Positions 962 to 18,300 of a stretch of 20,322 nucleotides of DNA are shown one piece after another (position 1 is the stretch's first letter; every line of letters starts with the position of its first letter). The stretch comes from a plasmid. The translations under genes were made by a program, and so were the position numbers. The notes beneath the pieces were generated by a model. The model made no database searches and was not told where the DNA came from. It saw only the letters and a program-made list of their open reading frames with translations. The stretch lies in the sequence record NZ_CP096917.1; one strand, 5' to 3'.

Positions 962-1168
962 CACTATTGACCTTTGACCCGCGTTTTCGGCGCTGGGCCT
1001 TGGTACGCCGGCATCAAAAGCAAGGACGACCACACGATTTTGCCGCTATTGACGGTCAATAGTTTGGCTTCGTTGGCCAGTTTCCTGACTTGACCCATGA
1101 CCCACGCCCCATTGACCTTTGACACACGCCACTATTGACCTTTGACCCGCGCACTATTGACCTTTGAC
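962..1168 (+). repeat. Iteron cluster (3 full + 1 partial direct copies of CACTATTGACCTTTGAC; 22-bp spacing between the last two)
   Basis: Exact 17-mer repeated. The last two copies are in tandem with 5-bp spacers (CCGCG). Confidence 0.85.
1046..1062. repeat. Inverted pair of iteron half-sites (CTATTGAC G GTCAATAG)
   Basis: Perfect 8-bp arms matching the iteron core, located between iteron 1 and iterons 2-4. Confidence 0.7.
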
Positions 1169-4106: not shown

Positions 4107-4214
4107 TTTTACTCTGATACAACAACGGCTAATCGGCAGGGGTGTTCTGTGAAGAGGCACTATTGAAGGGCAAGCCGGAGTGGTAGCCAGGCGCTGGATT
4201 TTGAATATTTGAAC

Positions 4215-4250
4215 GGGGGTCTTTCGCGTGCGAAAGACCCCCGTTTTTAC
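4215..4250. terminator. Bidirectional terminator-like hairpin built on a copy of the dispersed palindrome
   Basis: 28-bp perfect palindrome GGGGGTCTTTCGCGTGCGAAAGACCCCC at 4215-4242, followed by GTTTTTACTTT. Lies between convergent higA and the 90-aa minus-strand gene. Confidence 0.5.
4220..4237. repeat. Dispersed palindrome copy 1 (TCTTTCGCGTGCGAAAGA)
   Basis: Core TTTCGC-GT-GCGAAA. Confidence 0.8.
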
Positions 4251-4271: not shown

Positions 4272-4291
4272 GACTTTCGCGCGCGAAAGTC
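4272..4291. repeat. Dispersed palindrome copy 2 (GACTTTCGCGCGCGAAAGTC)
   Basis: 20-bp perfect palindrome, 52 bp from copy 1. Confidence 0.8.
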
Positions 4292-4317
4292 GCGCGAGTT
4301 TTTGAGCACCACGATCC

Positions 4318-4590
4318 CTAGGATTGCTCCGATTGAACCGGCTGGGTGATCGCTTGAGGCGTGCCAAGCAAAGACGCCTTGTGCTGCGAAAGGAAAGACT
4401 TGAGCTTTGCCGGCTCGACACCGGATAGGCCAAGATCGACCAGGACTTTGAAAAGATCGTCCTTGGCCTTCGCCAGTTTCTTTGCCTCTTTTTCTTTTTC
4501 TCTAGCCTCGATGGCACGTAGCTTGGCCTGCATCTTTTGAATTTTGTCCTGGAGCTTCTGCTTCTCAGGGAGCGTCGTTTTTTCAGTCAT
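4318..4590 (-). CDS. Small Lys/Glu-rich coiled-coil protein (90 aa), divergent from oriT/trwA. Possible transfer or stability accessory DNA-binding protein.
   Basis: ATG at 4590 with a strong RBS AGGAG. Sequence MTEKTTLPEKQKLQDKIQKMQAKLRAIEAREKEKEAKKLAKAK... The longer ORF start at 4704 lacks an RBS. Confidence 0.6.
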   Translation of the reverse strand: MTEKTTLPEKQKLQDKIQKMQAKLRAIEAREKEKEAKKLAKAKDDLFKVLVDLGLSGVEPAKLKSFLSQHKASLLGTPQAITQPVQSEQS

Positions 4591-4699
4591 GTTGAGAACT
4601 CCTTGTTCTGTACCTCTTAGGATTTTACAGAACAAGTGAGCTTGGCGACAGTGGGGGACTTGGTGAAATCCGTCTTCTGATAGAGGTGGGCGGTGGGCT

Positions 4700-4986
4700 G
4701 TCATCTGGAGAGTTTGAGCTATCTTCGACAGGAGGCGACTCTAGCGGGTTGTCCACCTACGGCGGACGACCCGAAAAGGGAGATACCCCCTTCGGGGGCC
4801 CCAAAAATTTTTCCACACCATACGCAACTAGTAGTTGCATGGCTAAGTCATTGGTAAAAAAGAAGATTTTGTGTAGACAACGGGGCTGTGAGATACTTAA
4901 ATTGCTTTCATCATGAAAGCACAATAGCCGTTATAGATCAACAGGTTATTGCGTTTTTTAACGTAGTCACTATCATTGGAAACATT
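4700..4986. other. oriT: Candidate oriT (MOBF-type) upstream of trwA
   Basis: Lower-GC region between divergent genes. Contains inverted repeat GCTTTCAT C ATGAAAGC at 4904-4920, inverted repeat GCAACTA G TAGTTGC at 4824-4838 and hairpin CCCCC TTCG GGGGG at 4786-4798. ATAGCC / TATAG motifs at 4923-4940 are reminiscent of MOBF nic regions. The nic site is not assignable by eye. Confidence 0.5.
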
Positions 4987-5343
4987 ATGAGTCAGTCATC
5001 TATCCCATGCCGCTTCGATTCGAGCACCGCAGCCTTCCTGAAGGCGGAAGCGGCGCGCGAAGGCGTGTCTCAGTCGGAGTACATCCGGCGCATGGTAAGT
5101 AAGGGACTTTTGGTGCAGTCGCTAGAGGATGCAGTCTCGGAAATTCGCTCAGTTTCTCGGGCATCTGGGAGCGGCATAACCGAAGAAGGTTTCCGATTTT
5201 TGGCAACGAGTGTTCTTGAAGTCAGAAATCTTTTGCGCATAATTTCAGCAAAGAACTTCCCAACTGCTGTGACCGAAGCAAGGAAAGATGCAGAGGACGA
5301 AGTGAAGCGCCTTCTTGGCGATGGGGGTAGCAATGTCGGTTAG
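4987..5343 (+). CDS. TrwA/TraY-like ribbon-helix-helix relaxosome accessory protein
   Basis: 118 aa from ATG 4987. N-terminal RHH-like stretch (CRFDSSTAAFLKAEAAREGVSQSEYIRRMVSKGL). Immediately precedes the coupling protein and relaxase genes. Confidence 0.6.
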   Translation: MSQSSIPCRFDSSTAAFLKAEAAREGVSQSEYIRRMVSKGLLVQSLEDAVSEIRSVSRASGSGITEEGFRFLATSVLEVRNLLRIISAKNFPTAVTEARKDAEDEVKRLLGDGGSNVG

Positions 5344-7093
5344 AAGATCGACCAACACGGAGAACCTTGTACGTGGTGCGGATACTCTTCTGCACCAAGG
5401 GACGATGCTGGCAAAGGCCGCGCTTTGGGCTATCAGCTCAGGTGTTCTTGTTGGCTCTGTGGTGGTTTCAATCGGTGCCTCTCTCGTCACCACAGGCACT
5501 GAAAGGACGTTCGCTTACAAGCACATTGTCGCAAAGACAAAGGTATTTTTTTCACAGGAAAAGCACTTGGTTGATCTTGTCATCAACGGCAAAGAAGTGT
5601 CGCTTCCAGCCGACCAGGCTGCGATTGTCACAAGCGGTATTTTTGAGAAAGTGCGCGCGAGAGTTGCACTCGTCGGATTGTTCGGATTGATGGTTGGTGG
5701 TGCGACCTCTGGAGCCCTCGTTTTGTACTGGAGGCGGCGAGGAAGTAAGCAGGCCGAAGATGAATTTATCCGGGGCACTCGTCTCGTCGAAGGGCAACAG
5801 TTGGCGGGATTGATTCAGGCGGATAACAAAGAGAGCAAGATCACTATTGCGGGAGTGCCAACGCTTGCAGGTGGGGAGATGCTTCATACGATGATTTCGG
5901 GGGCAGTCGGAACCGGTAAATCCGTTTCGATTCTCGAAATTCTGGATAGCGTCAGGGCGCAAGGAAAGCGGGCGATTGTTTACGATCCGACAGGGGAGTT
6001 CACAGAGTATTACTACCGCGAAGGGCGGGATGTGATACTTAATCCGCTAGACGCAAGAAGCCCAAACTGGAACTTGTGGAGAGAGATAAGGAGCGACTTC
6101 GATTACCGTAGTTTTGCGACATCTTTGGTACAGGTAAAAAGCCAGACAGACCCATTTTTTGAACAGTCTGCACGGATCATCGCGGAAGAGCTTTTCAGAA
6201 AACTGGCTCAGATTGGCAGAGCGACGAACCAAGCTGTTTATGATGCAGCGGCCAAGCTGACATTACAGGAGCTTTTCGAGCTTTTGAAGGGAACCAGTGG
6301 GGCAAACTTGATTGATCCGGCTGGCGAGAGAACGGCGCTTTCTGTGCGCTCTGCTTTTCTGAATGCCATGAATGCTTTTCGTTATCTCCACGACGACGGC
6401 GAGGCGTTCTCAATCCGAGAATGGGTAGAAAACGACTCGGCTGATTCATGGCTCTTTATCCCATCTCGCGCTGATTACCATGAAGCGGTCAAACCGCTAA
6501 TCACCCTTTGGCTAGAGATCGCTACACGAGGTGTCATGAATCTGCCGCCGATTCGGGAGTCTCGGTTCTGGCTGGTGGTGGACGAGCTTCCCACCTTGCA
6601 AAAGATCGAGGCGCTGCAAACGCTCGTGACGGTAACCCGCAAGTATGGGATGTCCGGTGTATTCGGGATTCAGTCGGTTTCTCAGATGCGCGAGCTGTAC
6701 GGCAAGGACGGTGCGCAGACTGTTATGGGGATGTGCCAGACCTGGGTTGTGCTCCGTGTGGCGGATTCTGAAACAGCCAAGTACCTCTCCGAGACGCTTG
6801 GCCAAGCCGACATTCAGGAGAAGGATGAGGGCCTTTCCTTCGGCGCGGAATCCAACCGGGACGGGACAAATCTCGTCTCCAAACGGACAGAGCGCGCGAT
6901 TGTGCTGGCCTCGGAGATTCAGCACTTGCCCGACCTGGAGGGCTATATGCGGGTTCCTGGCCCGTATCCCGTGGCGAAGATCAAGCTCCAGTATCGTAAC
7001 CGGGAGAAGATTGCTGCGCCCTTTGTGCCGCGTCAGCAAGGCATGTTTGCGGCAGCGCCGGCCGAAGCCGTCGATGCCGATCCGTTCGCGTAG
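5321..7093 (+). CDS. Type IV coupling protein (TrwB/TraD family)
   Basis: Two N-terminal transmembrane segments. Walker A (GAVGTGKS). TraD/TrwB-like block LVVDELPTLQKI. The start is ambiguous among TTG 5315, ATG 5321 and ATG 5333. It overlaps the end of the trwA-like gene. Confidence 0.85.
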   Translation: MGVAMSVRRSTNTENLVRGADTLLHQGTMLAKAALWAISSGVLVGSVVVSIGASLVTTGTERTFAYKHIVAKTKVFFSQEKHLVDLVINGKEVSLPADQAAIVTSGIFEKVRARVALVGLFGLMVGGATSGALVLYWRRRGSKQAEDEFIRGTRLVEGQQLAGLIQADNKESKITIAGVPTLAGGEMLHTMISGAVGTGKSVSILEILDSVRAQGKRAIVYDPTGEFTEYYYREGRDVILNPLDARSPNWNLWREIRSDFDYRSFATSLVQVKSQTDPFFEQSARIIAEELFRKLAQIGRATNQAVYDAAAKLTLQELFELLKGTSGANLIDPAGERTALSVRSAFLNAMNAFRYLHDDGEAFSIREWVENDSADSWLFIPSRADYHEAVKPLITLWLEIATRGVMNLPPIRESRFWLVVDELPTLQKIEALQTLVTVTRKYGMSGVFGIQSVSQMRELYGKDGAQTVMGMCQTWVVLRVADSETAKYLSETLGQADIQEKDEGLSFGAESNRDGTNLVSKRTERAIVLASEIQHLPDLEGYMRVPGPYPVAKIKLQYRNREKIAAPFVPRQQGMFAAAPAEAVDADPFA

Positions 7094-7104
7094 GGGAAGA
7101 AACG

Positions 7105-10100
7105 ATGCTCTCCGCGAAGGTGATCGAGAACGCGCAACAGGCTGAACACTACTTCAGCCAGGACAACTACTACACGACCGAAGAAGGATTCGAGCAGTCC
7201 GCGTGGGCCGGTAAGGGCGCAGCGGCGCTGGGGTTGTCGGGTGGCGTTCATCGTGAGCAGTTCATGGAGCTGCTTGAGGGAAAGGTGGATGGCCAGGAGC
7301 TGGGCAAGTGGGTCAGGAACGAAGAGACTGGCCAGAAGGAGCGCGAACACCGCCCAGGAATAGACCTCACCTTTTCGGCCCCGAAAAGTGTTTCCTTGCT
7401 GGCTGAAGTCGCCGGCAACGAGGAAGTGAGCAAAGCCCATGATGTTGCGGTCGAGCGGGCCATTGCATACCTTGAACGTGTGGCCGCTCAGGCGCGGACT
7501 ACTGTTGATGGGGTTACGTCCCGAGAAGATACCGGCAACTTGGTCGTTGCCCAGTTTCGCCACGATACCAGCCGGGAACTTGATCCGCAGACCCATACCC
7601 ATGCGGTTGTTTTCAACCTTACCAAGCGTTCGGATGGTCAATGGCGCTCCCTTTCCAATGAGGAGTTGCTAGGCCACATCAAGGATGCCGGCGCCTACTA
7701 CCGCACCGAGCTGGCGGGGCAACTGTCTGCGCTGGGGTATGAAATCGAGCGCACGCACGCTGATGGGCGGTTCGAGGTAAAGGGCTTTACCAAGGAGCAG
7801 CTTGAGCACTTCAGCCAGCGCAGCGGGCAGATTGAGCATGCTTTGGCCGAGCGTGGGAAGAACCGTCAGACGGCTACTACCGAGGAAAAGCAGATGGCCG
7901 CCCTGGACACTCGCCAGGCGAAAAAAGAGGTGGATCGTGGCCCGCTGCGTGAGGAATGGCTTTCGCGTGCGAAAGATGTAGGGATCGAGTGGGACAAGAT
8001 ACCTCGTGACAAGGGCGTGACTTTCGCGCGCGAAAGTTCGGCAGAACTCTACCTCCGGGCTAAAGAGGCGGTTGATTACGCCACGAAGCACCTTAGCGAG
8101 CGGCAGGCAGCTTTTTCCGCAAAGGATCTGTATCGGCACGCCGTCGAGTTTGGGACTGGACGAACCACCATCCAGGCCATCGACAAGGCAATTCGTGAGT
8201 CCAAGAAGTCGGGCGACCTGATCCCGATCGGAGACAAGCAGGAACGACTGACCACCCGTGACGCTGTGACGGCAGAGCTGCGGATGCTGGATGCGCTCGA
8301 ACGCTCAAAGGGCGCGGTTTCTTCCGTGGTCGGCACCAACCGGCTAGATGCAAAGATCGAGGCGGCACAGAGCCGCTTGATCCGGGATGGCGTCATCGAT
8401 GCCCAGCTTAATGCCGGCCAGTTGGATGCAGCGAAACTGATCCTGGGCACCAATGATCGGTTTGTAGGCGTCCAGGGTTATGCCGGTACTGGCAAAACCA
8501 CAATGCTAAATGTGGTGAAGGCTGTTGCCGAAGAACAGGGATACGTGGTGCGTGGCCTCGCGCAAAGTGCTTCCGCTGCTGCCACGTTGGAGGCTGAAAC
8601 GGGGATCAAAAGCCAAACGGTGGAGAGCTTCCTCCTGGAGCGCCAGAGAGAGCGGGAAAAGGCCGAGAAAGAGGCGGAGCGCACCGCCAAGAGCAGTGAC
8701 AAGGACAAGCCAACCAGCCGGGATGTGATGGGGAATCGCTACCTGGAGATTCCGGGCGGAATGTTCAAGGAGCGGCAATTGTTGGTTGCTCGCGGAACCG
8801 TTACCAATGCGCTGGCCCTGGAAGCCGTGGACAGACTCCGCGAAATGAGGCCCAAAAACGCCTTGGCCAAAGAGGTGCGTGCCCATGCTCTTGCTACAGC
8901 CCGTGGCATGGTGAAGTGGGAGCGGGCAAGCACGACTGACCAAGTTCTTTTCAGAGCGGCCGAGGTGGCCTCCAAGGTGAAATCGCTTTTCCAAGGGGAG
9001 AAGCCACAGGAAGCAGCGAAGCCAAAGGGCGAAATCTGGACTGTTGATGAGGCCAGTTTGTTGGGGCAACGGGACATCAACCGCCTGTTGGCAGAGGCCG
9101 AGCGAGTCGGGGCCAGGGTTCAGTTCACGGGTGATGTTCGCCAGCTATCGGCTGTCAGCGCTGGCAAGCCGTTCGAGGTTATGCAAACGGCAGGTGGCAT
9201 GCAGACGGCCAAGATGACGGAGATTCACCGCCAGAAGAACGACCTACTCAAAGACACCGTTGCCGACATTATCGAGAAGCGCGAGCAGGATGCTTTCAAG
9301 AAGCTGGCCGGGAATACCGTCGAGCTGAAAGACAACGAGAAGTTGATAGCCCGCATCGTGGCGGATGTCCGCCAGGACGTTGGCCGGGAGATTCGGCACG
9401 AACTGTCTGGCGCTGGTGAAAAGTCCCACAAAGACACTTTGGTCATCACAGCCTTGAATGAAGACCGCCGGGCTATCAATAACGGCGTGCGGCAGGCGCT
9501 CAAGGAAGATGGCGTTATCTCTGGCCAGGCCCGTGATACCGAGGTGTTGGTTAATCGAGGCATGACCAAAGCGCAGGCATCCCACGCACAGAACTACCAC
9601 GAAGGCGACGTGGTGCGGTTTGGGCGTGACTATGAACGCCTCGGGGTGAAGGGTGGCGAGTATGCCCGCGTGGTTGGCGTGAGCGACCTTGGCACCGTAA
9701 AGCTGCAAAAAGCGGACGGGCAAACCCTGGACTGGCGACCCGCACAGACCTCAAAAATTGAGGTGTTCCATGCCGAGCGCCGGGAGCTGCAAGCCGGAGA
9801 CAAGATCAGATTCACGCGCAATGACAAGGATCGTGGCTTGAACAACGGCGATGTTGCCTATGTGAAAGCAATCAACGGCGACAAGGCCACGGTGCAGTTA
9901 AAGGGCAAGACCGTTGCGATTGATCTGCGCGAGGTCAAGCACCTGGACTACGCCTACGCATCCACGATCCATTCCAGCCAGGGGAAAACAGTGGACGCGA
10001 CCGCCTTCCACGTCCGGGGGAAGTCCGGCCAGGTCTTTGGCGACCGGGCCTTCTACGTTGGCGCAACCCGCTCTAGGCACGAGCTGCGCATCTACACCGA

Positions 10101-10215
10101 CGACAAAGACGCCGCATTGCGCGCTGTTTCCCGAGATCAGCACAAGGCGAGCGCATTGGAAGAGTTGAAGCAAGGCCAGAGCGCCGGCCGCCAGCGATCC
10201 GGGTATTCACGATAA
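7105..10215 (+). CDS. trwC: MOBF relaxase-helicase (TrwC/TraI family)
   Basis: 1036 aa. N-terminal relaxase motifs (GLDLTFSAPKSVS, RHDTSRELDPQTHTHAVVFN), C-terminal helicase Walker A (GYAGTGKTT) and TIHSSQGKTVD motif. Overall colinear with R388 TrwC. Confidence 0.93.
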   Translation: MLSAKVIENAQQAEHYFSQDNYYTTEEGFEQSAWAGKGAAALGLSGGVHREQFMELLEGKVDGQELGKWVRNEETGQKEREHRPGIDLTFSAPKSVSLLAEVAGNEEVSKAHDVAVERAIAYLERVAAQARTTVDGVTSREDTGNLVVAQFRHDTSRELDPQTHTHAVVFNLTKRSDGQWRSLSNEELLGHIKDAGAYYRTELAGQLSALGYEIERTHADGRFEVKGFTKEQLEHFSQRSGQIEHALAERGKNRQTATTEEKQMAALDTRQAKKEVDRGPLREEWLSRAKDVGIEWDKIPRDKGVTFARESSAELYLRAKEAVDYATKHLSERQAAFSAKDLYRHAVEFGTGRTTIQAIDKAIRESKKSGDLIPIGDKQERLTTRDAVTAELRMLDALERSKGAVSSVVGTNRLDAKIEAAQSRLIRDGVIDAQLNAGQLDAAKLILGTNDRFVGVQGYAGTGKTTMLNVVKAVAEEQGYVVRGLAQSASAAATLEAETGIKSQTVESFLLERQREREKAEKEAERTAKSSDKDKPTSRDVMGNRYLEIPGGMFKERQLLVARGTVTNALALEAVDRLREMRPKNALAKEVRAHALATARGMVKWERASTTDQVLFRAAEVASKVKSLFQGEKPQEAAKPKGEIWTVDEASLLGQRDINRLLAEAERVGARVQFTGDVRQLSAVSAGKPFEVMQTAGGMQTAKMTEIHRQKNDLLKDTVADIIEKREQDAFKKLAGNTVELKDNEKLIARIVADVRQDVGREIRHELSGAGEKSHKDTLVITALNEDRRAINNGVRQALKEDGVISGQARDTEVLVNRGMTKAQASHAQNYHEGDVVRFGRDYERLGVKGGEYARVVGVSDLGTVKLQKADGQTLDWRPAQTSKIEVFHAERRELQAGDKIRFTRNDKDRGLNNGDVAYVKAINGDKATVQLKGKTVAIDLREVKHLDYAYASTIHSSQGKTVDATAFHVRGKSGQVFGDRAFYVGATRSRHELRIYTDDKDAALRAVSRDQHKASALEELKQGQSAGRQRSGYSR
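7960..7975. repeat. Dispersed palindrome copy 3 (CTTTCGCGTGCGAAAG), inside trwC
   Basis: Encodes LSRAK within the relaxase-helicase linker. Confidence 0.8.
8019..8037. repeat. Dispersed palindrome copy 4 (GACTTTCGCGCGCGAAAGT), inside trwC
   Basis: Encodes VTFARES. 60 bp downstream of copy 3. Confidence 0.8.
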
Positions 10216-10224
10216 GGAGGAAGA

Positions 10225-11352
10225 ATGGAAAAACGATTCAGATTGACTTTGTTGGCTGGGGCGATGCTTGCCCTGTCGATGGGGGCTTACGGCCAGAAGA
10301 TGACCGACCAGGTTATCCAGCAGCAGAGGGCCGAGGCCATGAAAACCCCCTTTCAAGTTCGTCAGGAGAAGAACGAGGCCGATTACAAGAAGGCTAGGAG
10401 CTTCCTGGACGCCGGGAATTACACGGCGGCAATCCCCTACCTTCAGGCAGCGGCCGAACGTGACCACCTAGATTCAATACTTGAGCTGGGCATGATCTAT
10501 GAGGATGGGAAAGGGGTTCCCGTCAACATGGCTAAGGCACAGGAGTATTACGTTCGTGTAGCCGAACGGCACCCGGACATCACGCTAAAAATCAAGGCCG
10601 CGCAGCTCTTTTGTGGTGGCGAAGGGCTGTATGCCAATGATGGTGTGATCCGTGACCCTGAGCGCGGCTTGGCGATTCTGGCCAAAGAGTACAGCCGGGA
10701 ATGGAAGGTCGAAATGGACTGGTGGAAGTACGTGTGCTACACGCGGACGGCCAGCCCTGACCCCAAAAAAGCCGGGCAAATGCTCAATGAGGCAGCGAGT
10801 TATCTGACCGGCGGTGATCGGGATAACACCATCAACGACAAGGCGGTGAAGAAGGTCAAAGACGAGATTTTCAATCGGGTCTATGCCTTTCGTTTGTATG
10901 ACCGCGATGGAGCCTTGAAGAAGTACGGCGCGGCTGCCGAGGCCGGCGACAGCACGGCCCAGCGCGCACTGTACGAGGCATATAGCGATGGCCGCGGCGC
11001 ACCGCAGAGCAGGCAGCTTGCCTTTGAGTGGATCATGAAAGCCGCATCGACTGGCGATGGCTTTGCCGAAACCGTTGTCGGTGAAGCCTACCTGAATGGA
11101 TACACCCCCGTTGACCGCGATTACCAAGCGGCGATCCAGTGGCTCACGAAAGGCGCAGAGCATGGCCAGTGGCTTGCAGCCTGGATGTTGAGCGACCTCT
11201 ACAAAAAAGGTCTTGGTGGCAAGCCTGACAGCAGCCGCGCGCAATTTTGGGCGAACCGTTGCAACGAGCTGGGCGGGAAGTGCGGCGGACAGCGCCAGAC
11301 GGTTGCACCTGGTGCGCAAGGGTCGGCCATTAAGAGGGCTTTTCAGCAATGA
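10225..11352 (+). CDS. Exported Sel1-repeat (SLR/TPR-like) protein
   Basis: Signal peptide MEKRFRLTLLAGAMLALSMGAYG. Several Sel1-like repeats (e.g. LGMIYEDGKGVPVNMAKAQEYY, AEAGDSTAQRALYEAYSDGRG, GEAYLNGYTPVDRDYQAAIQWLTKGAEHG). RBS AAGGAGGA. Start is 9 bp after the trwC stop. Confidence 0.8.
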   Translation: MEKRFRLTLLAGAMLALSMGAYGQKMTDQVIQQQRAEAMKTPFQVRQEKNEADYKKARSFLDAGNYTAAIPYLQAAAERDHLDSILELGMIYEDGKGVPVNMAKAQEYYVRVAERHPDITLKIKAAQLFCGGEGLYANDGVIRDPERGLAILAKEYSREWKVEMDWWKYVCYTRTASPDPKKAGQMLNEAASYLTGGDRDNTINDKAVKKVKDEIFNRVYAFRLYDRDGALKKYGAAAEAGDSTAQRALYEAYSDGRGAPQSRQLAFEWIMKAASTGDGFAETVVGEAYLNGYTPVDRDYQAAIQWLTKGAEHGQWLAAWMLSDLYKKGLGGKPDSSRAQFWANRCNELGGKCGGQRQTVAPGAQGSAIKRAFQQ

Positions 11353-12503
11353 GGCGGGCTATCGTTTTTTTAGCCGTGATGGGCATTGCGGCCGGTGCGA
11401 GTGCTGCGAGTGTTGGCACGGAAACGCGGGAAGGCACCGACACGAAGCAGGGACAGACGATTGAGAACAGCCAAAACATCCAGCTCCGCAAGGGCAACAG
11501 CAAGCGGAATGTGACGGGTTCTGATCGCCGGGCCGCTGAGGAACGGGCACGCGAGAAGCGCCAGACCGATGACATTTCGGCCGAGCTGCAAGGAGCCGCG
11601 CTTTTCATCCCCATGCTTCAGGAGATCGAGCAGGGGCAGGTTGATACAGGGAGCAATCCTGTAGCCGAGTTGTTCCAGAGCTGCCGCTTCTTCACCAGCG
11701 CCCAGCCGGTTCCCGTAGCCCTGGGGGCTTCTCCGTCCCCAATGGAGGTGAACTACTTGGCAGGCGGCGATGTGTCGCTGGTTTGGGGCGCTCAAAACTC
11801 GGAAGTCAGCATATCCGCGAACGACAAAATTACTGTTCGCAGTTCTGATCCGGCTGTGCCGCGCGTGCGGGTATCTGGTGCATCTATCTGGCAGCGGTAC
11901 TACTGGCACGAGACAGCCAGTCTTTTCCGAGTAGGGGCAGCGCGTGACATTGCCCGCTGCTATTTCGCCTATGGGCTGACGATAGCCGGGGCCATGAAGA
12001 ATCTTGCCCAGGGGGGCCGTTTCCAGGAAACCAAGCTCAGTGAAAAGGTTGTGTTGGTTCGTGGCGACCTTCAAGAAAGGGCCGCCGGCGCGCTTGTCGC
12101 GGCCATGCGGGCACCGTCGCTACGCAAGGAGATCGAGGCCAACACCCTGCGCGTGACAAGTGCCGATTGCATTCTCCCCACCTTGGCCGGCTTGAACCAA
12201 GGCAGCACGGAGTGGCAATGCGGGAGCCTGAAGGTTGATCCCAGCCGAGTCATGGCCACCCTTGGGGGAATGACAGTGCTTGGCGAAAACCAATTCATGG
12301 GCCAGCGCCTGGCATTTGCACAAGTGACCGGGCAGAGCGTGACGGCACGCTCCAGCAACAGCCGTTCTACCTATGCCTCCCAAGATGCCACCAGCGAGAC
12401 CGGCCAGGATGTTTCGATGGCCAAGCGCAAGAGCACCACGGTTGACCGTTCGACTACGACCGGCGCGTCTGGCAAGGCCGATACCAACGCAACCCCGAAA
12501 TAA
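11349..12503 (+). CDS. Exported hypothetical protein (384 aa) with Ser/Thr-rich C-terminal tail
   Basis: Signal peptide MRRAIVFLAVMGIAAGASAAS. Start overlaps the upstream stop (ATGA). No recognisable family. Confidence 0.65.
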   Translation: MRRAIVFLAVMGIAAGASAASVGTETREGTDTKQGQTIENSQNIQLRKGNSKRNVTGSDRRAAEERAREKRQTDDISAELQGAALFIPMLQEIEQGQVDTGSNPVAELFQSCRFFTSAQPVPVALGASPSPMEVNYLAGGDVSLVWGAQNSEVSISANDKITVRSSDPAVPRVRVSGASIWQRYYWHETASLFRVGAARDIARCYFAYGLTIAGAMKNLAQGGRFQETKLSEKVVLVRGDLQERAAGALVAAMRAPSLRKEIEANTLRVTSADCILPTLAGLNQGSTEWQCGSLKVDPSRVMATLGGMTVLGENQFMGQRLAFAQVTGQSVTARSSNSRSTYASQDATSETGQDVSMAKRKSTTVDRSTTTGASGKADTNATPK

Positions 12504-12512
12504 GGAAATTCA

Positions 12513-12872
12513 ATGAAAGCCCTTACTGGAGCACTCATCGGCACAGGCGCAGGCGCGATTGTGCTACTGGCGTACCTCTCTCTTGGCCAGCAGGCGGAAA
12601 CGAAGAAAGAGATCCAAGTCGACAAAGCCAAGATCGAGCTGGAACAGGCCCGGTTCGATAAGCAGTTTGACGAGAAGTGGGCCGAGTTCGACGGGAAGAA
12701 GCCATCGAAAGAGGCGAAGGAAGCCCATGAGGAACGCATCCGGGAGGCCGGTAAGGACTTGGCCCAGGCGCGGGATGCTCTCGGGGTTGCATCGGCCAAG
12801 AACGCCAGCGACCTGGCCGAGATGAAAGCGGCCATCGATGCGATGGACAAAGAGTCCGCACCGCGCAAGTGA
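12513..12872 (+). CDS. Small membrane-anchored coiled-coil protein (119 aa)
   Basis: N-terminal hydrophobic helix (ALIGTGAGAIVLLAYLSL), then a K/E-rich coiled coil. RBS AAGGAAA. Confidence 0.6.
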   Translation: MKALTGALIGTGAGAIVLLAYLSLGQQAETKKEIQVDKAKIELEQARFDKQFDEKWAEFDGKKPSKEAKEAHEERIREAGKDLAQARDALGVASAKNASDLAEMKAAIDAMDKESAPRK

Positions 12873-12883
12873 AGGGGGGAAAC

Positions 12884-13573
12884 ATGAAACGCACTATCAC
12901 AGCCGCCTTGCTTATCTCATTGGGCCTTGGCGCTCATGCGACGGATGCCCCTTCGGCCGAGCCGATCCCGGCAACGGAGGCCAGCAGCGGCGGCATCAAG
13001 TTCGACCAGGTAGAGAGTCGCGGGGCCATGTCTCTGCCAGCCGGCACCAAGTCTGTGCCCCTGTACGTGGATTTCCAGGGTAGCCCGAAGCTGACGCGCC
13101 AACTCTCCGAGCAACTGGAGGCGATGGGCTGGCAGGTGACGGATGACCGCAATGCCACCCACTCCCTGACGGCGAAGGGCGAACTTCACGTTTGGGGCAA
13201 GGGATACGGCCTTGGCAGTAGTTCCCGTGTCACGGCCACGCTGGCCAGCTTTGTCGAGGAAAACAAAGTGCCCACCAGGCCAAAGCCTGGCGGCCTGTTT
13301 GGTGCCCTTGGCTCCATGCGGGAGAGCTTCAATTCTGCTGTCTCCGGATCGCCGGATGGTTGGTGCCTTTCCGACCAATGCCGCTTTGTCTGGCAGACCG
13401 CTGTTATCACGATGACCTATCGCAGCGCCAATAAAGACCAGCGCCTTGACGTGTCCGTGCGTGCCTCCGGCGACGCCTTGAACCTTGATGCCGTGGTGGC
13501 CGAGGCTGTCCGCAATTCGTTCTCTGCCATCAAGGCAAGTCCCGATCCTGTTGCTTCTACTCAAACCATGTGA
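12884..13573 (+). CDS. Exported hypothetical protein (about 229 aa)
   Basis: Signal peptide MKRTITAALLISLGLGAHA-TD. Alternative start at 12869 overlaps the upstream stop. RBS GGGGGGAAA. Confidence 0.65.
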   Translation: MKRTITAALLISLGLGAHATDAPSAEPIPATEASSGGIKFDQVESRGAMSLPAGTKSVPLYVDFQGSPKLTRQLSEQLEAMGWQVTDDRNATHSLTAKGELHVWGKGYGLGSSSRVTATLASFVEENKVPTRPKPGGLFGALGSMRESFNSAVSGSPDGWCLSDQCRFVWQTAVITMTYRSANKDQRLDVSVRASGDALNLDAVVAEAVRNSFSAIKASPDPVASTQTM

Positions 13574-13587
13574 AAGGAAAACCAGCC

Positions 13588-14130
13588 ATGAAGATCAAGA
13601 ACCTTCTCTCCATCATCGCCGTTGCCGCAATCGCGCAAGGCGCATTTGCGGCCGAGATCGACGCCGTAACCCTCTCCCACGATGGCCGCATTCTGCGCGC
13701 TCAGGGAGCGCCGGCAGCCGTCCAGGTTGCGGCTTTCAGCAGTACGGCCCCGGACTCGGTGCCGGCGACGTGCAAGGTGTTTGACATGGCCGGCTTTCTG
13801 AACCGGGACGATGCCAAGCCTGCGCTGCCTGTGGTCGAGGGGGTTCCCTATGGTTCCCGTCTCGTTTCTGCCTGGCACGAAGCGGCCGGCATTGTCGGCC
13901 GCGCGCCGGACTCCATGTTTTTCTGCATGACCAAGGACGGTGAACGGATGTTCGGAGAGGGTACGAGCTTCAACCCGTCCTATGAGTACCGGAAGGCGGC
14001 CGGCGCAGCGCCGGAGCGCGGCCAGATCGTCAGTGTGATCGGCGGCAGTGTGGTGATCGGTGTTGTGTTCTGGAACCCGGTGACGCCGGTTGCCGAATCC
14101 AAGTACGTCTCCATGAACTTCGGCCGCTGA
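13588..14130 (+). CDS. Exported hypothetical protein (about 180 aa)
   Basis: Signal peptide MKIKNLLSIIAVAAIAQGAFA-AE. Alternative start at 13570 overlaps the upstream stop. RBS AAAGGAAA. Confidence 0.65.
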   Translation: MKIKNLLSIIAVAAIAQGAFAAEIDAVTLSHDGRILRAQGAPAAVQVAAFSSTAPDSVPATCKVFDMAGFLNRDDAKPALPVVEGVPYGSRLVSAWHEAAGIVGRAPDSMFFCMTKDGERMFGEGTSFNPSYEYRKAAGAAPERGQIVSVIGGSVVIGVVFWNPVTPVAESKYVSMNFGR

Positions 14131-14147
14131 CTTTCGCGCGCGAAAGT
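14129..14147. repeat. Dispersed palindrome copy 5 (GACTTTCGCGCGCGAAAGT)
   Basis: Overlaps the stop codon of the last exported-protein gene. Confidence 0.8.
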
Positions 14148-14157
14148 GGAGGCTGGC

Positions 14158-14177
14158 GACTTTCGCATGCGAAAGTC
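14158..14177. repeat. Dispersed palindrome copy 6 (GACTTTCGCATGCGAAAGTC, AT centre variant)
   Basis: 29 bp from copy 5. Upstream of the eamA-like gene. Confidence 0.8.
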
Positions 14178-14212
14178 TGCTGGCCAGTCTATCGACTATC
14201 CAAGGATTGAAA

Positions 14213-15112
14213 ATGAGTTCAGGCTTTGCTCTCGGTAACAACCGGCCTCAGTGGGCCGACTGGCATTTCGCCCTGCCGCTTCTTTTTGTGGTGCTCTACG
14301 GCTCTGGTTTCGTTGGGGCCAAGCTGGGGCTTCCCGATGCCGGCCCCTTTACCTTCCTCGCGCTGCGCTTTGCGCTGGCCTCGATCATCATGGTTGTGAT
14401 CGCCCTGGCCATCAAAGCACCGTGGCCAACCACCCCGAAAGAGTGGCTGCACATTGCCGGTGCCGGGTTCTTCGGTGTGGGGGTTTTTTCGGCTGCGGCT
14501 TTCTCCAGTATCGCGCTGGGTGTGCCGCCCGCCGTTTCCGCCCTGATCGTGGCGCTTAACCCCATCGTGGTGGCTTTGGCAGCGGGGCCGCTCCTGGGCG
14601 AGCGCACCAACTACCGCCAGCTCCTGGGGTTGCTGCTGGGCTTCTGCGGCGTTTATCTGGTCTTGCGGGATCGGCTTGGGGTCGATGCGGGCTATACCAC
14701 GGCGGTACTGTTGTCCGTGCTGGCCCTGCTGGGCCTGGCTGTCGGCAACCTGTACCAGAAAAAGCACTGCACCAGCATGAACCTTTTTACCGGGGGAGCC
14801 TTGCAGTGCTGCGTGTGCGCCCTGGCCATGAGTGCGGGCATGATGATCTTTGACGAAGGCCCGGTTCACTGGACGGCTGAATTCATGGTGGCTTGGTTCT
14901 GGATGGCCATTGCTGTTTCGATTGGGGCTGTCAGCATCCTCTACATCATGATCCGCCGCGCCGAGGTCAGCCGGGTGGCCAGTGTGTTTTTCCTGATGCC
15001 GGTTAGCGCCGCTGTGATTGCCTATGCACTCTTTGGCCAAGCACTGACGGCCAGCGCGTTCCTGGGCATGGGCGTTACGGTTGCCGGCGTGATGCTGGCC
15101 CAGCGTAGGTAA
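14213..15112 (+). CDS. EamA/DMT-superfamily transporter (10 TMS-type)
   Basis: About 300 aa with repeated hydrophobic helices typical of EamA (e.g. GVYLVLRDRLG, FWMAIAVSIGAVSILYIMIRR). ATG at 14213 with RBS AAGGA. The ORF tracker's TTG start at 14207 is rejected. Confidence 0.8.
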   Translation: MSSGFALGNNRPQWADWHFALPLLFVVLYGSGFVGAKLGLPDAGPFTFLALRFALASIIMVVIALAIKAPWPTTPKEWLHIAGAGFFGVGVFSAAAFSSIALGVPPAVSALIVALNPIVVALAAGPLLGERTNYRQLLGLLLGFCGVYLVLRDRLGVDAGYTTAVLLSVLALLGLAVGNLYQKKHCTSMNLFTGGALQCCVCALAMSAGMMIFDEGPVHWTAEFMVAWFWMAIAVSIGAVSILYIMIRRAEVSRVASVFFLMPVSAAVIAYALFGQALTASAFLGMGVTVAGVMLAQRR

Positions 15113-15119
15113 GCCTCAT

Positions 15120-15137
15120 TCGTCTATCGCCGTACAT
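15120..15137. repeat. Left 18-bp inverted repeat flanking the RHH gene (TCGTCTATCGCCGTACAT)
   Basis: 17 of 18 positions form an inverted repeat with 15401-15418. Ends 12 bp before the RHH gene start. Confidence 0.75.
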
Positions 15138-15149: not shown

Positions 15150-15401
15150 ATGGAAAACCAACTTTTGGCCCCAGAGGCTGGCCAGGCAGAGCCGAAAGCG
15201 AAGCCGAGCAAGCGCCGGCGTGGCTCCATCTACAAAGACAGGCAGGTAGTGAGTTTGCGGCTTCCAGAGGGCTTGCACGCCGATCTACTGGCCTTTGCCG
15301 ACGAGCAGCAGGTGGTTTTGAATACGTACATCCTCGGACTGGTGGAGGCTGACTTGGCCGAGCGCCGGAAACTTTCGCGTGCGAAAGCCGGGAAAAAGTG
15401 A
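15150..15401 (+). CDS. Ribbon-helix-helix (CopG/Arc/ParG-like) DNA-binding protein
   Basis: 83 aa. Flexible basic N-terminus, then VVSLRLPEGLHADLLAFADEQQVVLNTYILGLVEADL (beta-alpha-alpha RHH pattern). RBS GGGAGAGAAG. Confidence 0.7.
   Translation: MENQLLAPEAGQAEPKAKPSKRRRGSIYKDRQVVSLRLPEGLHADLLAFADEQQVVLNTYILGLVEADLAERRKLSRAKAGKK
15371..15387. repeat. Dispersed palindrome copy 7 (ACTTTCGCGTGCGAAAG), inside the 3' end of the RHH gene
   Basis: Encodes KLSRAKAG. Confidence 0.8.
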
Positions 15402-15418
15402 TGTACCGCGATAGACGA
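15401..15418. repeat. Right 18-bp inverted repeat flanking the RHH gene (ATGTACCGCGATAGACGA)
   Basis: Begins at the last base of the RHH stop codon. Confidence 0.75.
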
Positions 15419-15426
15419 GTCCGGCC

Positions 15427-15445
15427 GACTTTCGCGCGCGAAAGT
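15427..15445. repeat. Dispersed palindrome copy 8 (GACTTTCGCGCGCGAAAGT)
   Basis: Shares a 22-bp identical stretch, including the 3' flank GTTCG, with copy 4. Confidence 0.8.
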
Positions 15446-15480
15446 TCGTCCGTGTCGGTGACACTGAAGCGAGGCGGGAC

Positions 15481-15894
15481 ATGAAAGACCGATGCCACGA
15501 TGAAGCAATGGCCGAGATGTTCAAGGAAGACCCAGCCTTTGCGGTCGAGCTGGTAAACAGCATCCTTGACGATGGCGACCAGGACGATTTGCAGATTGCC
15601 TTTCGGCAGATTGACAAGGCCGGGCTTTTTGACCGTGCCGGCGTGCTGTACGAGGTGGCTTGTGATGTCATTGGGGCGATCATCGCCCACTACTCCGAAG
15701 CACTCGCCCAAGAGCGCGGGAAGCCGGTTCCCGATGCTGCGGCCGTGGAACGGATCGAGGCCGCCAAGCGCGCCTTGCGGCTTGAGCGCGACGAGCTGGA
15801 CACCTCGAATGCAGAGGCAATCAAGTCAGTGATTCAGAAGTATGGGCCACAGGCGCGGGAACTCTACCAAGCCGGTAATGGGAGGCCGGTGTGA
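15481..15894 (+). CDS. Hypothetical acidic protein (137 aa). N-terminal stretch resembles 'addiction module antidote' proteins but lacks an evident HTH.
   Basis: EDPAFAVELVNSILDDGDQDDLQIAFRQIDKAG resembles the N-terminal region of ParE/RelE-partner antidote proteins. C-terminal part is a predicted coiled coil. Stop overlaps the next start (GTGA). Confidence 0.6.
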   Translation: MKDRCHDEAMAEMFKEDPAFAVELVNSILDDGDQDDLQIAFRQIDKAGLFDRAGVLYEVACDVIGAIIAHYSEALAQERGKPVPDAAAVERIEAAKRALRLERDELDTSNAEAIKSVIQKYGPQARELYQAGNGRPV

Positions 15895-16097
15895 AGTGTC
15901 CTTGCTGCGGTGGTGCCGAGCTTGTCCGTGATACCCGCGACATGCCCTATGCTTACAAAGGCGAAACGACCGCTGTTCTGGCTGTAACAGGAGACTTCTG
16001 CCCCGCCTGCGGCGAAGTCATCTTGGATCGGGAGAATGGCGACCGTTACATGCGCGAAATATCGTTCTTCTCGAAGGCTGTGGACGCCAGGCGCTGA
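15891..16097 (+). CDS. Stand-alone YgiT-type (MqsA N-terminal-like) zinc-ribbon protein, 68 aa
   Basis: MKCPCCGG...DFCPACGE matches the CxxC...CxxC YgiT/MqsA zinc-finger domain (MKCPVC...YTFRG...C..C). No HTH domain. GTG start translationally coupled to the upstream ORF. Confidence 0.6.
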   Translation: MKCPCCGGAELVRDTRDMPYAYKGETTAVLAVTGDFCPACGEVILDRENGDRYMREISFFSKAVDARR

Positions 16098-16117
16098 CTT
16101 TCGCGCGCGAAAGTCAG
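16094..16117. repeat. Dispersed palindrome copy 9 (CTGACTTTCGCGCGCGAAAGTCAG, 24-bp perfect)
   Basis: Overlaps the stop codons of both convergent genes (zinc-ribbon ORF and recombinase). Confidence 0.8.
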
Positions 16118-16668
16118 GCTGGCTTGTCCATCAGCCGGGAAATGGTGGACGGGTGGACGTTGAACAACCTGGCCACGTCAGCCGCCGACTTCTCCCCGCT
16201 GGCCACCATCCGGCGCGCTTCCTCTTTTTGTTCCTGGTTGAGCTTGCTACGTCGGCCGCCGATCCGGCCCTTCTGTCTGGCGACATCGAGGCCGGCGCGC
16301 GTCCTCTCCCGAGTCATCGCCCGCTCGAACTCCGCGAAAGCCCCCAGCATCTGCATCATCATCCGCCCGGCCGGTGTCGTTGTGTCGATGGCCTCGGTGA
16401 TGCTGCGAAAGCCAGCCTTCGCCAGCTCGATGCAATCCATGACGTGCAACAGATCCTTGAGTGACCGCGAGAGCCGATCCAGCTTCCAGACCACAAGGAC
16501 ATCGCCGGGCCGCAGTTGCTCTAACGCCCGGTGCAACTCCGGCCGATCCCAGCGCCCGCCAGAAGCCTTTTCCGTGTAAAGGCGTTCACATCCGGCCTGC
16601 CGTAGCGCAGCCTCTTGAATAGCTGTGTCCTGATCATCGGTGGACACACGGGCATAGCCGATCAACAT
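16114..16668 (-). CDS. Serine recombinase, small Gin/Hin-invertase / resolvase type (184 aa)
   Basis: MLIGYARVSTDDQ..., VVWKLDRLSRS, GRIGGRRSKL. C-terminal HTH (AADVARLFNVHPSTISRLM). Confidence 0.88.
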   Translation of the reverse strand: MLIGYARVSTDDQDTAIQEAALRQAGCERLYTEKASGGRWDRPELHRALEQLRPGDVLVVWKLDRLSRSLKDLLHVMDCIELAKAGFRSITEAIDTTTPAGRMMMQMLGAFAEFERAMTRERTRAGLDVARQKGRIGGRRSKLNQEQKEEARRMVASGEKSAADVARLFNVHPSTISRLMDKPA

Positions 16669-17180: not shown

Positions 17181-17248
17181 GGCATCCCTGTCATTTTCTG
17201 AAGGCGACTGCACGGAATATCAGGAGTCGGCTGCACTGCCTGTCGGGA

Positions 17249-17632
17249 CTACTTCTTGCAGGCGCGTTCCATGTGCAGAACGGCGTCAAGCAATGCCATT
17301 GAATCGCAAGCGTCAGAAGCGTAGACCGTGCGCGTCCTTGGGTCATAGGACACCATGACGAACGGCTCTGGTGTGCGTTCGGCACTCCGGGGCGCTTGAC
17401 GCTTGGAGCGGTAGGCTCGGCATACCTCCCTCTTTTCGGCAAGCTGCTGGCCGATCTTCTTCCAGTCGAAGAGATAGTCGGGATACAACCGGCGCATGTC
17501 GCGCTTATCCTGCGGCTCAAGCGTGTAATTGCGAATGCGCATGATGTTGTAATTGCTTCTGCCGACCTTGACCGTGAGGTAGCAAAAGCCTTTTCTGGTC
17601 GTGACGAAGGCGCTGCTTGGCTTGCGGCTCAT
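17249..17632 (-). CDS. Hypothetical protein (127 aa) translationally coupled downstream of resolvase 2
   Basis: ATGA start/stop overlap with the upstream resolvase. No recognisable family. Confidence 0.5.
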   Translation of the reverse strand: MSRKPSSAFVTTRKGFCYLTVKVGRSNYNIMRIRNYTLEPQDKRDMRRLYPDYLFDWKKIGQQLAEKREVCRAYRSKRQAPRSAERTPEPFVMVSYDPRTRTVYASDACDSMALLDAVLHMERACKK

Positions 17633-18201
17633 CGTTGCTCGCTCCCGCTTTGCAGCGCAGCGTATAGAGCCGTCTTGCTCACCTTAAGCCGCGTGGCGGC
17701 CTCGCGGACGTTCAGCCCGTTTGCGATGTGCTCCCGCGCCCGCTGTAGCTTGTCTGCGGTGACGACCGGCTTGCGCCCGCCCTTGCGACCGCGTGCGGCA
17801 GCAGCGGTCAACCCAGCTTTGGTGCGCTCGCGGATCAGGTCGCGCTCAAACTCGGCGAGGGCCGCAAAAATCCCGAAGACCAGCTTGCCGGGGGCCGTGG
17901 TGGTGTCGATAGCTGCGCCTTGTCCCGTTAGCACCTTGAGGCCGACACCGCGTGCGGCCAAGCCTTGCACGGTATTGACCAAGTGAACCATCGAGCGGCC
18001 TAAGCGGTCGAGTTTCCACACGACGAGGGCATCACCTTCGCGCAAATAGGCCAGCGCTGCATCCAGACCTTGCCGCTCTTTTTTCGCGCCGCTGATGATG
18101 TCCTCAAATACCCGCTCGCAGCCCGCCTTGCGCAGCGCGTCTTTCTGTAAATCGACGTGCTGACTCTCCGTCGATACCCGCGCATAGCCGATCAGTGCCA
18201 T
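17629..18201 (-). CDS. Serine recombinase / resolvase (TnpR-like, about 190 aa)
   Basis: MALIGYARVSTESQ, VVWKLDRLGRS, C-terminal HTH (VREAATRLKVSKTALYAAL). Start taken at ATG 18201. The ORF tracker's 18222 is an N-terminal extension. Confidence 0.85.
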   Translation of the reverse strand: MALIGYARVSTESQHVDLQKDALRKAGCERVFEDIISGAKKERQGLDAALAYLREGDALVVWKLDRLGRSMVHLVNTVQGLAARGVGLKVLTGQGAAIDTTTAPGKLVFGIFAALAEFERDLIRERTKAGLTAAAARGRKGGRKPVVTADKLQRAREHIANGLNVREAATRLKVSKTALYAALQSGSEQR

Positions 18202-18204
18202 TGC

Positions 18205-18300
18205 CGCCCCTTTTGTCCGCATTTCCGTCCGCCTATCTTAATGTCCGACAACCCATTAAACAAGCATGTTGCCGGACAATGTCCGGCTTGACCGGCTAAT
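18205..18300. promoter_or_regulatory. res-like site upstream of resolvase 2
   Basis: Repeated TGTCCG / CGGACA elements, including the perfect inverted repeat CCGGACA A TGTCCGG at 18282-18296 and TGTCCGACA at 18242-18250. This is the usual Tn3-family res position, immediately 5' of tnpR. Confidence 0.55.

Follow-up and report, generated by a model that had tools for sequence, protein, structure and literature searches.

Classical operators embedded in coding sequence include lac O2 in lacZ, gal OI in galE, the PurR operator in purB and the cre sites in open reading frames (ORFs) of Bacillus. On plasmids, small ribbon-helix-helix (RHH) proteins such as omega of pSM19035 and ParG of TP228 serve as global regulators and centromere binders, and sites for helper regulators occur on mobilizable elements, as with the AcaCD boxes on SGI1 and mobilizable genomic islands (MGIs) and with the SetCD boxes. 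We know of no report of an operator inside trwC of plasmid R388. For plasmid RK2, Kostelidou and Thomas reportedly defined, in 2000, class III OB sites, some of which are located within transfer regions, well away from any promoter. KorB forms a CTP-dependent clamp, which reaches promoters by sliding from distal OB sites (PMC11790492; PMC13584720). The present analysis concerns two operator-like palindromes inside trwC, a MOBF relaxase-helicase gene on the plasmid with sequence record NZ_CP096917.1; "the window" denotes the whole 20,322-nt stretch analysed.

With a probability of about 0.5, we regard these palindromes as working copies of an operator that are kept in the trwC reading frame by selection on the DNA, and that would be bound, with repressive effect, by a ParB-type protein that a helper plasmid provides. 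From the patterns described below we infer that a protein binds, which protein this is and that its effect is repressive. The silencing or roadblocking role suggested in the initial annotation of this DNA would fit the data.

Palindromes inside trwC and across the window

The trwC product contains a Pfam TrwC relaxase domain (residues 10–291), aligning to R388 TrwC over residues 13–296 (E = 1e-68), and AAA_30/UvrD helicase domains of the RecD/UvrD type beyond it, with the Walker A motif GYAGTGKT at residues 467–474. Both 16-mers were confirmed at the positions within trwC given in the initial annotation (Table 1). Their spacing, reported there as 60 bp, is 61 bp from start to start, with a 45-bp spacer in between. 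Site 2 lies in the relaxase-helicase linker, as had been stated for both; site 1, in contrast, falls in the last helix of the relaxase domain, where it aligns with QATAK (residues 282–286) of the R388 TrwC N293 crystal construct. The same DNA word is read in different frames at the two sites, giving the peptide contexts W-LSRAK-D at site 1 and V-TFARES-S at site 2.

The 22-bp identity said to be shared with copy 8 of the palindrome was recovered (GACTTTCGCGCGCGAAAGTTCG at 8019–8040 and 15427–15448). The order of the central dinucleotides, GT then GC, had been put forward as a further sign of selection. It was seen in three pairs of the window and is not kept in relatives, and since the central two bases vary freely it is not evidence of selection. 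A distinct 18-bp perfect palindrome, CTTTTCGGCCCCGAAAAG, is present at 7371–7388 within the relaxase domain of trwC.

The trwC DNA of 11 relatives from assemblies and genomes was compared (99, 99, 95, 81, 77, 72, 71, 69, 68, 66 and 65% protein identity). Five more relatives came from scanning metagenomes for the 61-bp pair, every match lying in a trwC of the same family. Site 2 was found at the same trwC offset in 16 of 16 relatives (65–99% amino acid identity), and site 1 was kept in those of at least 69% identity. In a codon alignment of 10 trwC sequences, 36% of the nucleotides were invariant, and among degenerate codons for invariant amino acids 28 of 444 (6.3%) were themselves invariant. 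Five consecutive codons of site 2 in this alignment, TTC GCG CGC GAA AGT, are frozen. At 17 nt, CTTTCGCGCGCGAAAGT at site 2 is the longest invariant run of the 3.1-kb gene, the next (13 nt) being in the catalytic N-terminus, and this invariance is observed despite the position of the site in the variable linker. Site 2 uses the rare codons ACT (11%) and AGT (9.5%); given TFARES and the codon usage of the gene, the probability of its codon string is 2.7e-4.

The outgroup TrwC proteins (47% identity), which come from large plasmids, have the relaxase and helicase parts fused already and lack the sites, which marks the sites as derived. In place of TFARES they show a two-codon gap and QRAQGG, and in place of WLSRAKD they have WKERAKE. 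At the position of site 1 the relatives L133 and L134 (related plasmids carry L numbers throughout) retain the ancestral WKERAKE or WQQRAKE. Site 1 was created by the substitutions K to L and E to S, which built a left half-site beside the older CGN GCN AAA GA. Judged from this distribution, site 2 was gained first and site 1 later. In another relative, L139, recombination near the sites was considered and set aside, as the overlapping split hits suggest frameshifts in an old assembly.

It is scarcely credible that the palindromes have no function and arose by chance, were forced by the protein sequence, remained as a relic of an ancient relaxase/helicase gene junction or came in with a mobile palindromic repeat. 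The right half of site 1 (CGN GCN AAA GA) does pre-exist in the outgroups, R-A-K-E/D being conserved. Nevertheless, the number of copies in the window (10) stands against an expected 0.09, and at a background of 6.3% the chance of five invariant codons in a row is ~1e-6 (0.063^5). A relic of gene fusion was rejected, the outgroup proteins being fused already and without sites. When the pairs were aligned with their flanks in search of a duplicated module, flanks and spacers proved unrelated, and a larger inserted repeat unit is therefore rejected as well. Amino acid conservation alone had been named in the initial annotation as the explanation that would undo its claim of a selected site; that refutation failed, as outgroups do without TFARES and LSRAK and the synonymous positions are frozen. 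The claim itself is strongly supported by synonymous invariance, by the de novo gain through amino-acid-changing substitutions and by the plasmid-wide operator family. Sequence comparison establishes purifying selection at the nucleotide level on these putative operator sites in trwC, and their gain de novo.

A search of the window with the pattern CTTTCGCRYGCGAAAG gave 10 matches, compared with a mean of 0.09 and a maximum of 1 in 100 dinucleotide-preserving shuffles. Five copies are promoter-proximal, among them the one in the 3' end of the RHH gene; convergent gene ends enclose three more, and the remaining two are deep in trwC. The operon from trwA to o186 (~9 kb) has essentially no intergenic DNA, and the trwC pair, the sole operator copies in it, breaks an otherwise 9.9-kb site-free stretch of the window (4274 to 14131). 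With no gaps over 9 kb, sites could be placed in the operon only by embedding them in a sequence-tolerant stretch, which would be the end of the relaxase domain together with the TrwC linker.

Two of the other copies have features of their own. Copy 1 forms the top of a 16-bp perfect hairpin (4212–4245) that is followed by the T run TTTTTACTTTATT and looks like an intrinsic terminator downstream of higA; the extended stem is present in L127 too, and the sequence may double as operator and terminator. Copy 7 encodes the tail of the RHH protein (15372–15401). All RHH proteins of the small plasmids (window, L125, L127, L130, L133, L134 and L141) end in (K/R)LSRAK(A/V)..., encoded by an operator copy, and this tail is missing from the large-plasmid homologues. 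It is a third case of an operator placed within a reading frame.

Recognition of the site was assessed with a profile drawn from 69 sites in ten small plasmids. The inner 12 positions (TTTCGC / GCGAAA) are invariant in 69 of 69 sites and the central two bases are free (GC 47, GT 11, AC 5, GG 3, AT 2, CT 1). With GA...TC preferred in the flanks, the site is symmetric over 20 bp around a free 2-bp centre, and the operator consensus is GA-CTTTCGC-NN-GCGAAAG-TC, 16–20 bp in length. No compensated double change was found among the 69 sites, and the one-mismatch variants are asymmetric. The lack of covariation together with the invariant inner positions is the signature of a dimeric sequence-specific DNA-binding protein and not of a structure. 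Hairpins in the trwC mRNA or in the transferred single-stranded DNA, serving as attenuator, RNase site or pause signal, are thus very unlikely, even though a 6–7 bp stem is possible at each palindrome, the free centre could be its loop and copy 1 with its T run is terminator-like. Among the window copies, a T run comes after copies 1 and 2 alone; the trwC copies have none, and the same sequence also occurs upstream of promoters and in an oriV region.

An internal promoter flanked by the trwC pair, driving the downstream genes or a helicase-only product, would be in line with other pairs, which lie upstream of gene starts with spacers of ~30–45 bp; in L130 (10269/10327) the RHH start codon follows 14 nt after the second site. 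The trwC pair itself makes such a promoter improbable. A promoter scan of the window gave a count not above that of shuffles and no -35/-10 match in the 45-bp spacer on either strand, and the synonymous positions of the spacer drift in relatives. No conserved internal start codon follows: the GTG before site 2 is replaced in relatives by GCA, GCG, CAG or CCG, and the next Met is ~80 codons downstream.

Table 1. Positions in the window of the operator copies, the two trwC sites and associated genes and elements.
Feature	Position	Strand	Remarks
Second palindrome, CTATTGAC-G-GTCAATAG	1046-1062		Just downstream of rep
Copy 1	4221-4236		Between convergent 3' ends of higA and the 90-aa gene
Copy 2, GACTTTCGCGCGCGAAAGTC	4272-4291		53 bp from copy 1; ~600 bp upstream of oriT/PtrwA
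90-aa gene	4318-4590	-	Converges with higA
Third palindrome, TGCTTTCAT-C-ATGAAAGCA	4903-4921		oriT/PtrwA
Operon trwA-trwB-trwC-sel1-o384-o119-o234-o186	4987-14130	+	Gap-free; synteny kept in relatives
trwC, MOBF relaxase-helicase, 1036 aa	7105-10215	+	Hosts both sites
Copies 3 and 4	7960-7975, 8020-8037		Within trwC
Site 1, CTTTCGCGTGCGAAAG	7960-7975		CTT TCG CGT GCG AAA G = LSRAK, aa 286-290
Site 2, 16-mer, CTTTCGCGCGCGAAAG	8021-8036		
Site 2, 18-mer, ACTTTCGCGCGCGAAAGT	8020-8037		ACT TTC GCG CGC GAA AGT = TFARES, aa 306-311
Copy 5	14130-14147		Directly after last trw-operon gene (stop 14130); upstream of eamA and RHH gene
Copy 6, central AT	14158-14177		29 bp from copy 5
RHH protein o83, 83 aa	15150-15401	+	Pfam HicB PF05534, 21.9 bits (cut-off 21)
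Copy 7	15372-15387		In 3' end of RHH gene; encodes KLSRAK, frame as trwC site 1
Copy 8	15428-15445		Upstream of ORF 15481-15894
Copy 9, 24-bp perfect palindrome	16094-16117		Between convergent 3' ends of ORF 15481-15894 and resolvase gene
Resolvase gene	16114-16668	-	
Copy 10	19342-19363		18 bp upstream of -35 of TTGCAT-16-TAAAAT promoter for parA

The operator on pALIDE201 and candidate binding proteins

Scanning one genome per species for ACTTTCGCGCGCGAAAGT returned at least 120 stretches; among the matches listed, most came from plasmid-like Burkholderiales and Rhodocyclales contigs, and a single contig often had several. The large plasmid pALIDE201 (NC_015423.1), which has a MOBF relaxase and F-type mating-pair formation, carries 19 copies. 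They are far more evenly spaced than random (coefficient of variation 0.44; P = 1.5e-4 versus random placement), and a 9.8-kb stretch with RND efflux cargo has zero copies. Eleven copies are intergenic and eight are inside coding sequence, all eight in the tightly packed transfer region, where they are hosted by the coupling-protein gene, traV, traU, trbC, traG and three hypothetical genes. In traU, the copy specifies TFARES as part of the signal peptide, and AFARES is retained in a TraU of 81% identity. With 8 of 19 copies inside transfer genes, embedding in coding sequence is normal for this operator, and placement within genes is the rule wherever transfer genes leave no intergenic DNA. A literature search for the operator sequence and for pALIDE201 regulation found nothing relevant. 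As read from the sequences, this putative operator, previously undescribed, forms a family common to small mobilizable and helper-type conjugative plasmids of Betaproteobacteria.

Small Cupriavidus and Serratia plasmids (L001 1106–1129 and L004 12150–12173) carry a single palindrome copy directly 3' of a gene for an 83-aa helix-turn-helix (HTH) regulator, and share the rep-kfrA-par module with the window. This regulator was rejected as the binder, as it has no homologue in the window.

The odds that the binder is a ParB-type protein acting in trans are about even. pALIDE201 encodes IncC, a 430-aa ParB (WP_013723325.1), two KorA-family proteins, KfrA and KleA. Its ParB has the CTPase motif GERRYRAA and a marginal KorB domain, and its par operon is flanked by the palindromes, with no other clustered centromere-like repeat nearby. 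A ParB-family gene is present on pALIDE201 and on four other large-plasmid lineages (five in all), and in every diverged large-plasmid lineage with a visible par region a ParB gene (35–99% identity) and a KorA-family gene stand beside palindromes. The half-site TTTCGC resembles those of RK2 OB (TTTAGC) and parS (TTTCAC). Moreover, the promoter-independent positions and the even spacing on pALIDE201 fit loading sites of a sliding clamp.

When the pALIDE201 ParB and TrfB proteins were used in tblastn against the window and nine small plasmids related to it, no match was obtained at E ≤ 1 except one to TrfB1 in L125, which was marginal and spanned 36 residues (E 0.74). As ParB and KorA genes are thus missing from the window, a ParB provided in trans by a helper is preferred. 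The small plasmids carry two further pALIDE201 palindromes as well as iteron copies, yet no ParB, KorA or matching Rep, and this sharing makes action in trans credible. The initial annotation had also considered a partition or anchoring site; a partition-type binder of the ParB family is plausible only if supplied by the helper.

In the proposed mechanism, a dimeric sequence-specific repressor would bind each palindrome. Irrespective of which protein this is, the trwC sites would belong to a repressive operator network as its internal members. At the trwC sites, the bound protein would carry repression into the middle of the operon, the site acting as loading point for a sliding or spreading clamp of the ParB/KorB type or, in an alternative mode, as roadblock to elongating RNA polymerase. 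Repression from there might reach PtrwA, 3 kb upstream, and the distal genes, and a helper ParB would tie the mobilization genes to the transfer regulon of the helper.

A further-reaching proposal, which we advance tentatively, is that the small MOBF plasmids are satellites and form part of the central-control regulon of pALIDE201-type plasmids, with the trwC sites as clamp-loading sites for the ParB-CTPase of the helper. The elements of helper type on the window comprise ten operator copies, one probable KorA-type operator at oriV, the mating-pair-formation palindrome at oriT/PtrwA and iteron copies. If this proposal is true, the mobilization operon would be silenced in step with the transfer genes of the helper, and a multicopy plasmid might titrate the repressor of the helper and so derepress the helper's transfer apparatus.

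Several points weigh against a ParB from a helper. A binder of this type requires a co-resident helper, and the small-plasmid relatives all come from metagenomes or metagenome-assembled genomes. A plasmid whose own parA promoter is controlled by a foreign regulator would be odd. Site spacing in the window (0.7–6.1 kb) is not notably even. Pairs 28–61 bp apart (spacings of 28, 29, 47, 53, 57, 58, 60 and 61 bp were seen) are typical of small plasmids and almost never occur on large ones, and paired sites may point to a small cooperative repressor such as an RHH protein. In addition, a third palindrome of pALIDE201, TTGCTTTCAC-N-GTGAAAGCAA (three copies), which is the one shared with oriT/PtrwA of the window, is closer in sequence to canonical parS than the operator is and could be the true ParB site.

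The RHH protein o83 of the window is a possible but doubtful binder. On the corresponding explanation, which we hold at a similarly low level of confidence, the operator network is the same, the plasmid's own RHH protein represses its own operon through the pair 14131/14160 and acts at other promoters, and the trwC pair is a roadblock or auxiliary operator attenuating the distal half of the trw operon; a helper would be unnecessary. The protein has a beta-strand-helix-helix sequence pattern and belongs to the only DNA-binding protein family that the large palindrome-bearing plasmids have in common with the window. Its gene follows directly after a palindrome at 11 loci, more often than any other gene does. 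One or two palindromes stand upstream of the RHH gene or operon in the window, L125, L127, L130, L133, L134, L141, pALIDE201 and six other large-plasmid loci, and on pALIDE201-type plasmids the gene comes right after trwC with a palindrome between them, 30–100 bp upstream. The putative DNA-reading strand, V-(S/T)-L-R, is conserved at an overall identity of only ~37%. Paired sites are typical of cooperative small repressors, and roadblock operators within genes are established for PurR at purB and CcpA at cre.

Nevertheless, no RHH homologue was found even at E < 50 in L131 (a closed circle), L128 and L132, which keep 4–7 sites including the trwC pair, and a Massilia plasmid (L053) has the palindrome after trwC with the RHH gene absent. 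The pair spacings (28–61 bp) show no constant helical phase, and 19 evenly placed sites on pALIDE201, many of them deep in genes, are unusual for a promoter repressor. The Pfam match is only at the cut-off. An AlphaFold model of the monomer was of low confidence, with the strand not formed, and was uninformative. A PDB sequence search with the RHH protein gave no match, and a protein search with it gave close relatives only.

There is a smaller chance that the binder is something else. ParG was rejected, as ParG types differ among plasmids that share the operator. Also rejected was an antidote-type HTH protein (MKDRSHDEA...), which is intact in some plasmids only and is represented in the window by a fusion without the HTH.

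Other shared elements and gene content of the window

The palindrome after rep, CTATTGAC-N-GTCAATAG, is present in exactly one copy at this place in every small plasmid, whatever the replicon family (TrfA, RepA_C or RPA). On pALIDE201 there are five copies at promoters, one overlapping a TTGACG-17-TAGAAT core. It is probably a KorA-type operator; the single window copy has no promoter assigned to it.

The palindrome at oriT/PtrwA, of the form TTGCTTTCA-N3-TGAAAGCA, is also found upstream of the mating-pair-formation operon of pALIDE201. The origin of transfer is likely at 4871–4921: the minus strand has CCCCGTTGTCT/ACAC, an R388-like nic core, ~25 nt from TGCTTTCAT-C-ATGAAAGCA. In L128/L132, L133 and L134 the oriT palindrome is swapped for unrelated palindromes though the DNA-reading region of TrwA is the same. 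TrwA was rejected as the protein bound to it, the TrwA N-termini of L131 and L128 being near-identical (the beta-strand identical) and their palindromes different.

An element of 20 nt, A(C/T)TCGTCTATC(G/A)NNGTACAT, forms an inverted pair ~300 bp apart that flanks the RHH gene (15118–15137 on the plus strand and 15401–15420 on the minus strand). It was also found in L125, L127, L128, L130 and L132–L134, and at 50740–51060 of pALIDE201. In L128 and L132 it flanks a 70-aa zinc-ribbon gene instead of the RHH gene, and several plasmids have it in the interval that separates the palindromes of an operator pair. A 16-mer of the element is identical to the oriV iteron of pALIDE201, which is present there in eight direct copies with a 22–23 bp period beside repA. 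The window itself has a Rep and iterons that differ in type from those of pALIDE201, and the small plasmids carry the iteron copies in inverted arrangement.

Non-coding DNA at ~19270–19344 of the window (beside copy 10) and at 1659–1757 (oriV region) recurs on pALIDE201 (43319–43476, 63313–63437, 66653–66816, 63599–63694 and 66924–67019) and at ~4300–4355 of L131 (oriV). This module adjoins three pALIDE201 palindromes, one of them upstream of ssb, and may belong to leading-region-like DNA.

The gene order of the window starts with a TrfA-type rep with iterons, kfrA, higBA and the 90-aa gene on the minus strand, followed by oriT. Genes 3' of the trw operon are eamA, the 83-aa RHH gene, a 137-aa ORF and a resolvase gene; after an insert of ~2 kb with a second resolvase gene and yafQ/dinJ come parA and a ParG-like gene. 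The partition genes are accordingly a type Ib ParA and a ParG-like RHH protein. The window carries a MOBF relaxase and a coupling protein; as it has no apparatus for mating-pair formation, the plasmid is mobilizable rather than conjugative. Its relatives are contigs of 17–23 kb with the same gene order, two of them self-closing. The distance from parG to rep across the window ends is 43 nt, as in L127, and the window is therefore probably the whole circle; it looks like a complete 20-kb mobilizable plasmid. A PLSDB search found no near-identical plasmid, the best TrwC being 46% identical, and its matches were limited to the 2-kb transposon-like insert and the rep-kfrA-par module.

The insert (~2 kb, 17189–19161) has 25-nt inverted-repeat ends (TGTCATTTTCTGAAGGCGACTGCAC, 92% match) with the resolvase gene and the yafQ/dinJ toxin-antitoxin pair inside. 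It is the sole part of the window that is near-identical on many unrelated plasmids (Aeromonas, Pandoraea, Pseudomonas, Klebsiella) and looks like a small mobile cassette. The gene for the EamA transporter (14207–15112) comes after the operator pair 14131/14160 and before the RHH gene. Relatives have no gene in this slot, or they have a zinc-ribbon gene with chromate transporter genes or an M48 peptidase gene, and the operator-controlled slot seems to be a place of cargo acquisition. The 137-aa ORF at 15481–15894 is chimeric. Its residues 1–55 resemble the N-terminus of a HigA-type "addiction module antidote" (pALIDE201 49259–49570), with the HTH missing, and the remainder resembles an 86-aa hypothetical protein (pALIDE201 34967–35227) that is encoded by a separate gene in L128 and L130.

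Comparison with described systems

Intragenic operators are usually dismissed as chance, and here a site was created in an essential conjugation gene and then synonymously frozen. Through the operator, small mobilizable plasmids are connected with a family of conjugative plasmids of F type. If a ParB/KorB clamp from a helper does bind, this would be a natural system in which intragenic loading sites, impedance of elongation and the exploitation of helper circuits by plasmids could be studied.

Among described systems, KorB-OB of RK2 (with KorA/OA and TrbA/OT) likewise has a 16-bp palindrome in a dozen or more backbone copies. Some OB sites are beside promoters and some are 45 bp to >1 kb away; the window similarly has many dispersed copies, 10 in 20 kb, of which 5 are not promoter-proximal. 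Plasmids of the pALIDE201 type resemble RK2 in their ParB-family CTPase, IncC, KfrA, KleA and pair of KorA-family proteins, and one pALIDE201 copy of the second palindrome overlaps a putative promoter core, as OA does. The half-sites TTTCGC and TTTAGC differ at one position. Unlike RK2, the window has no ParB, KorB or KorA, and type Ib ParA with a ParG-like RHH protein takes their place. The centre of the operator is two bases wide and that of OB one base, the window sites are mostly paired, and chromosomal Spo0J/Noc proteins are nearer to the pALIDE201 ParB than KorB is.

With omega and ParG the present system would have in common a small RHH protein acting at several promoters of one plasmid, including the par promoter. 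Those proteins read arrays of 4–7 bp direct or inverted repeats at promoters, whereas the sites described here are isolated 16–20 bp palindromes in genes, and some plasmids keep the sites even though they have no RHH gene. Since no ParB is encoded on the replicon and the RHH gene is not universal, the sites are filed neither with the ParB/KorB-type nor with the RHH-type operators.

The classical intragenic operators share with the trwC sites the embedding of a repressor site in coding sequence and the dual constraint on protein and DNA, and act by looping or by blocking elongation. They serve one operon and one chromosomal regulator, whereas the operator here is plasmid-wide and was recently gained in a relaxase gene. 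R388 TrwC has the same domain architecture and differs in having QATAK where the window has LSRAK.

The AcaCD and SetCD systems are alike in that the mobilization genes of a non-self-transmissible element would follow the transfer programme of a helper, and the palindrome at oriT/PtrwA of the window is the one found upstream of the pALIDE201 mating-pair-formation operon. AcaCD and SetCD boxes are experimentally shown activator boxes at promoters; the sites described here are presumably repressive and partly intragenic, and a helper is suggested by the shared cis elements.

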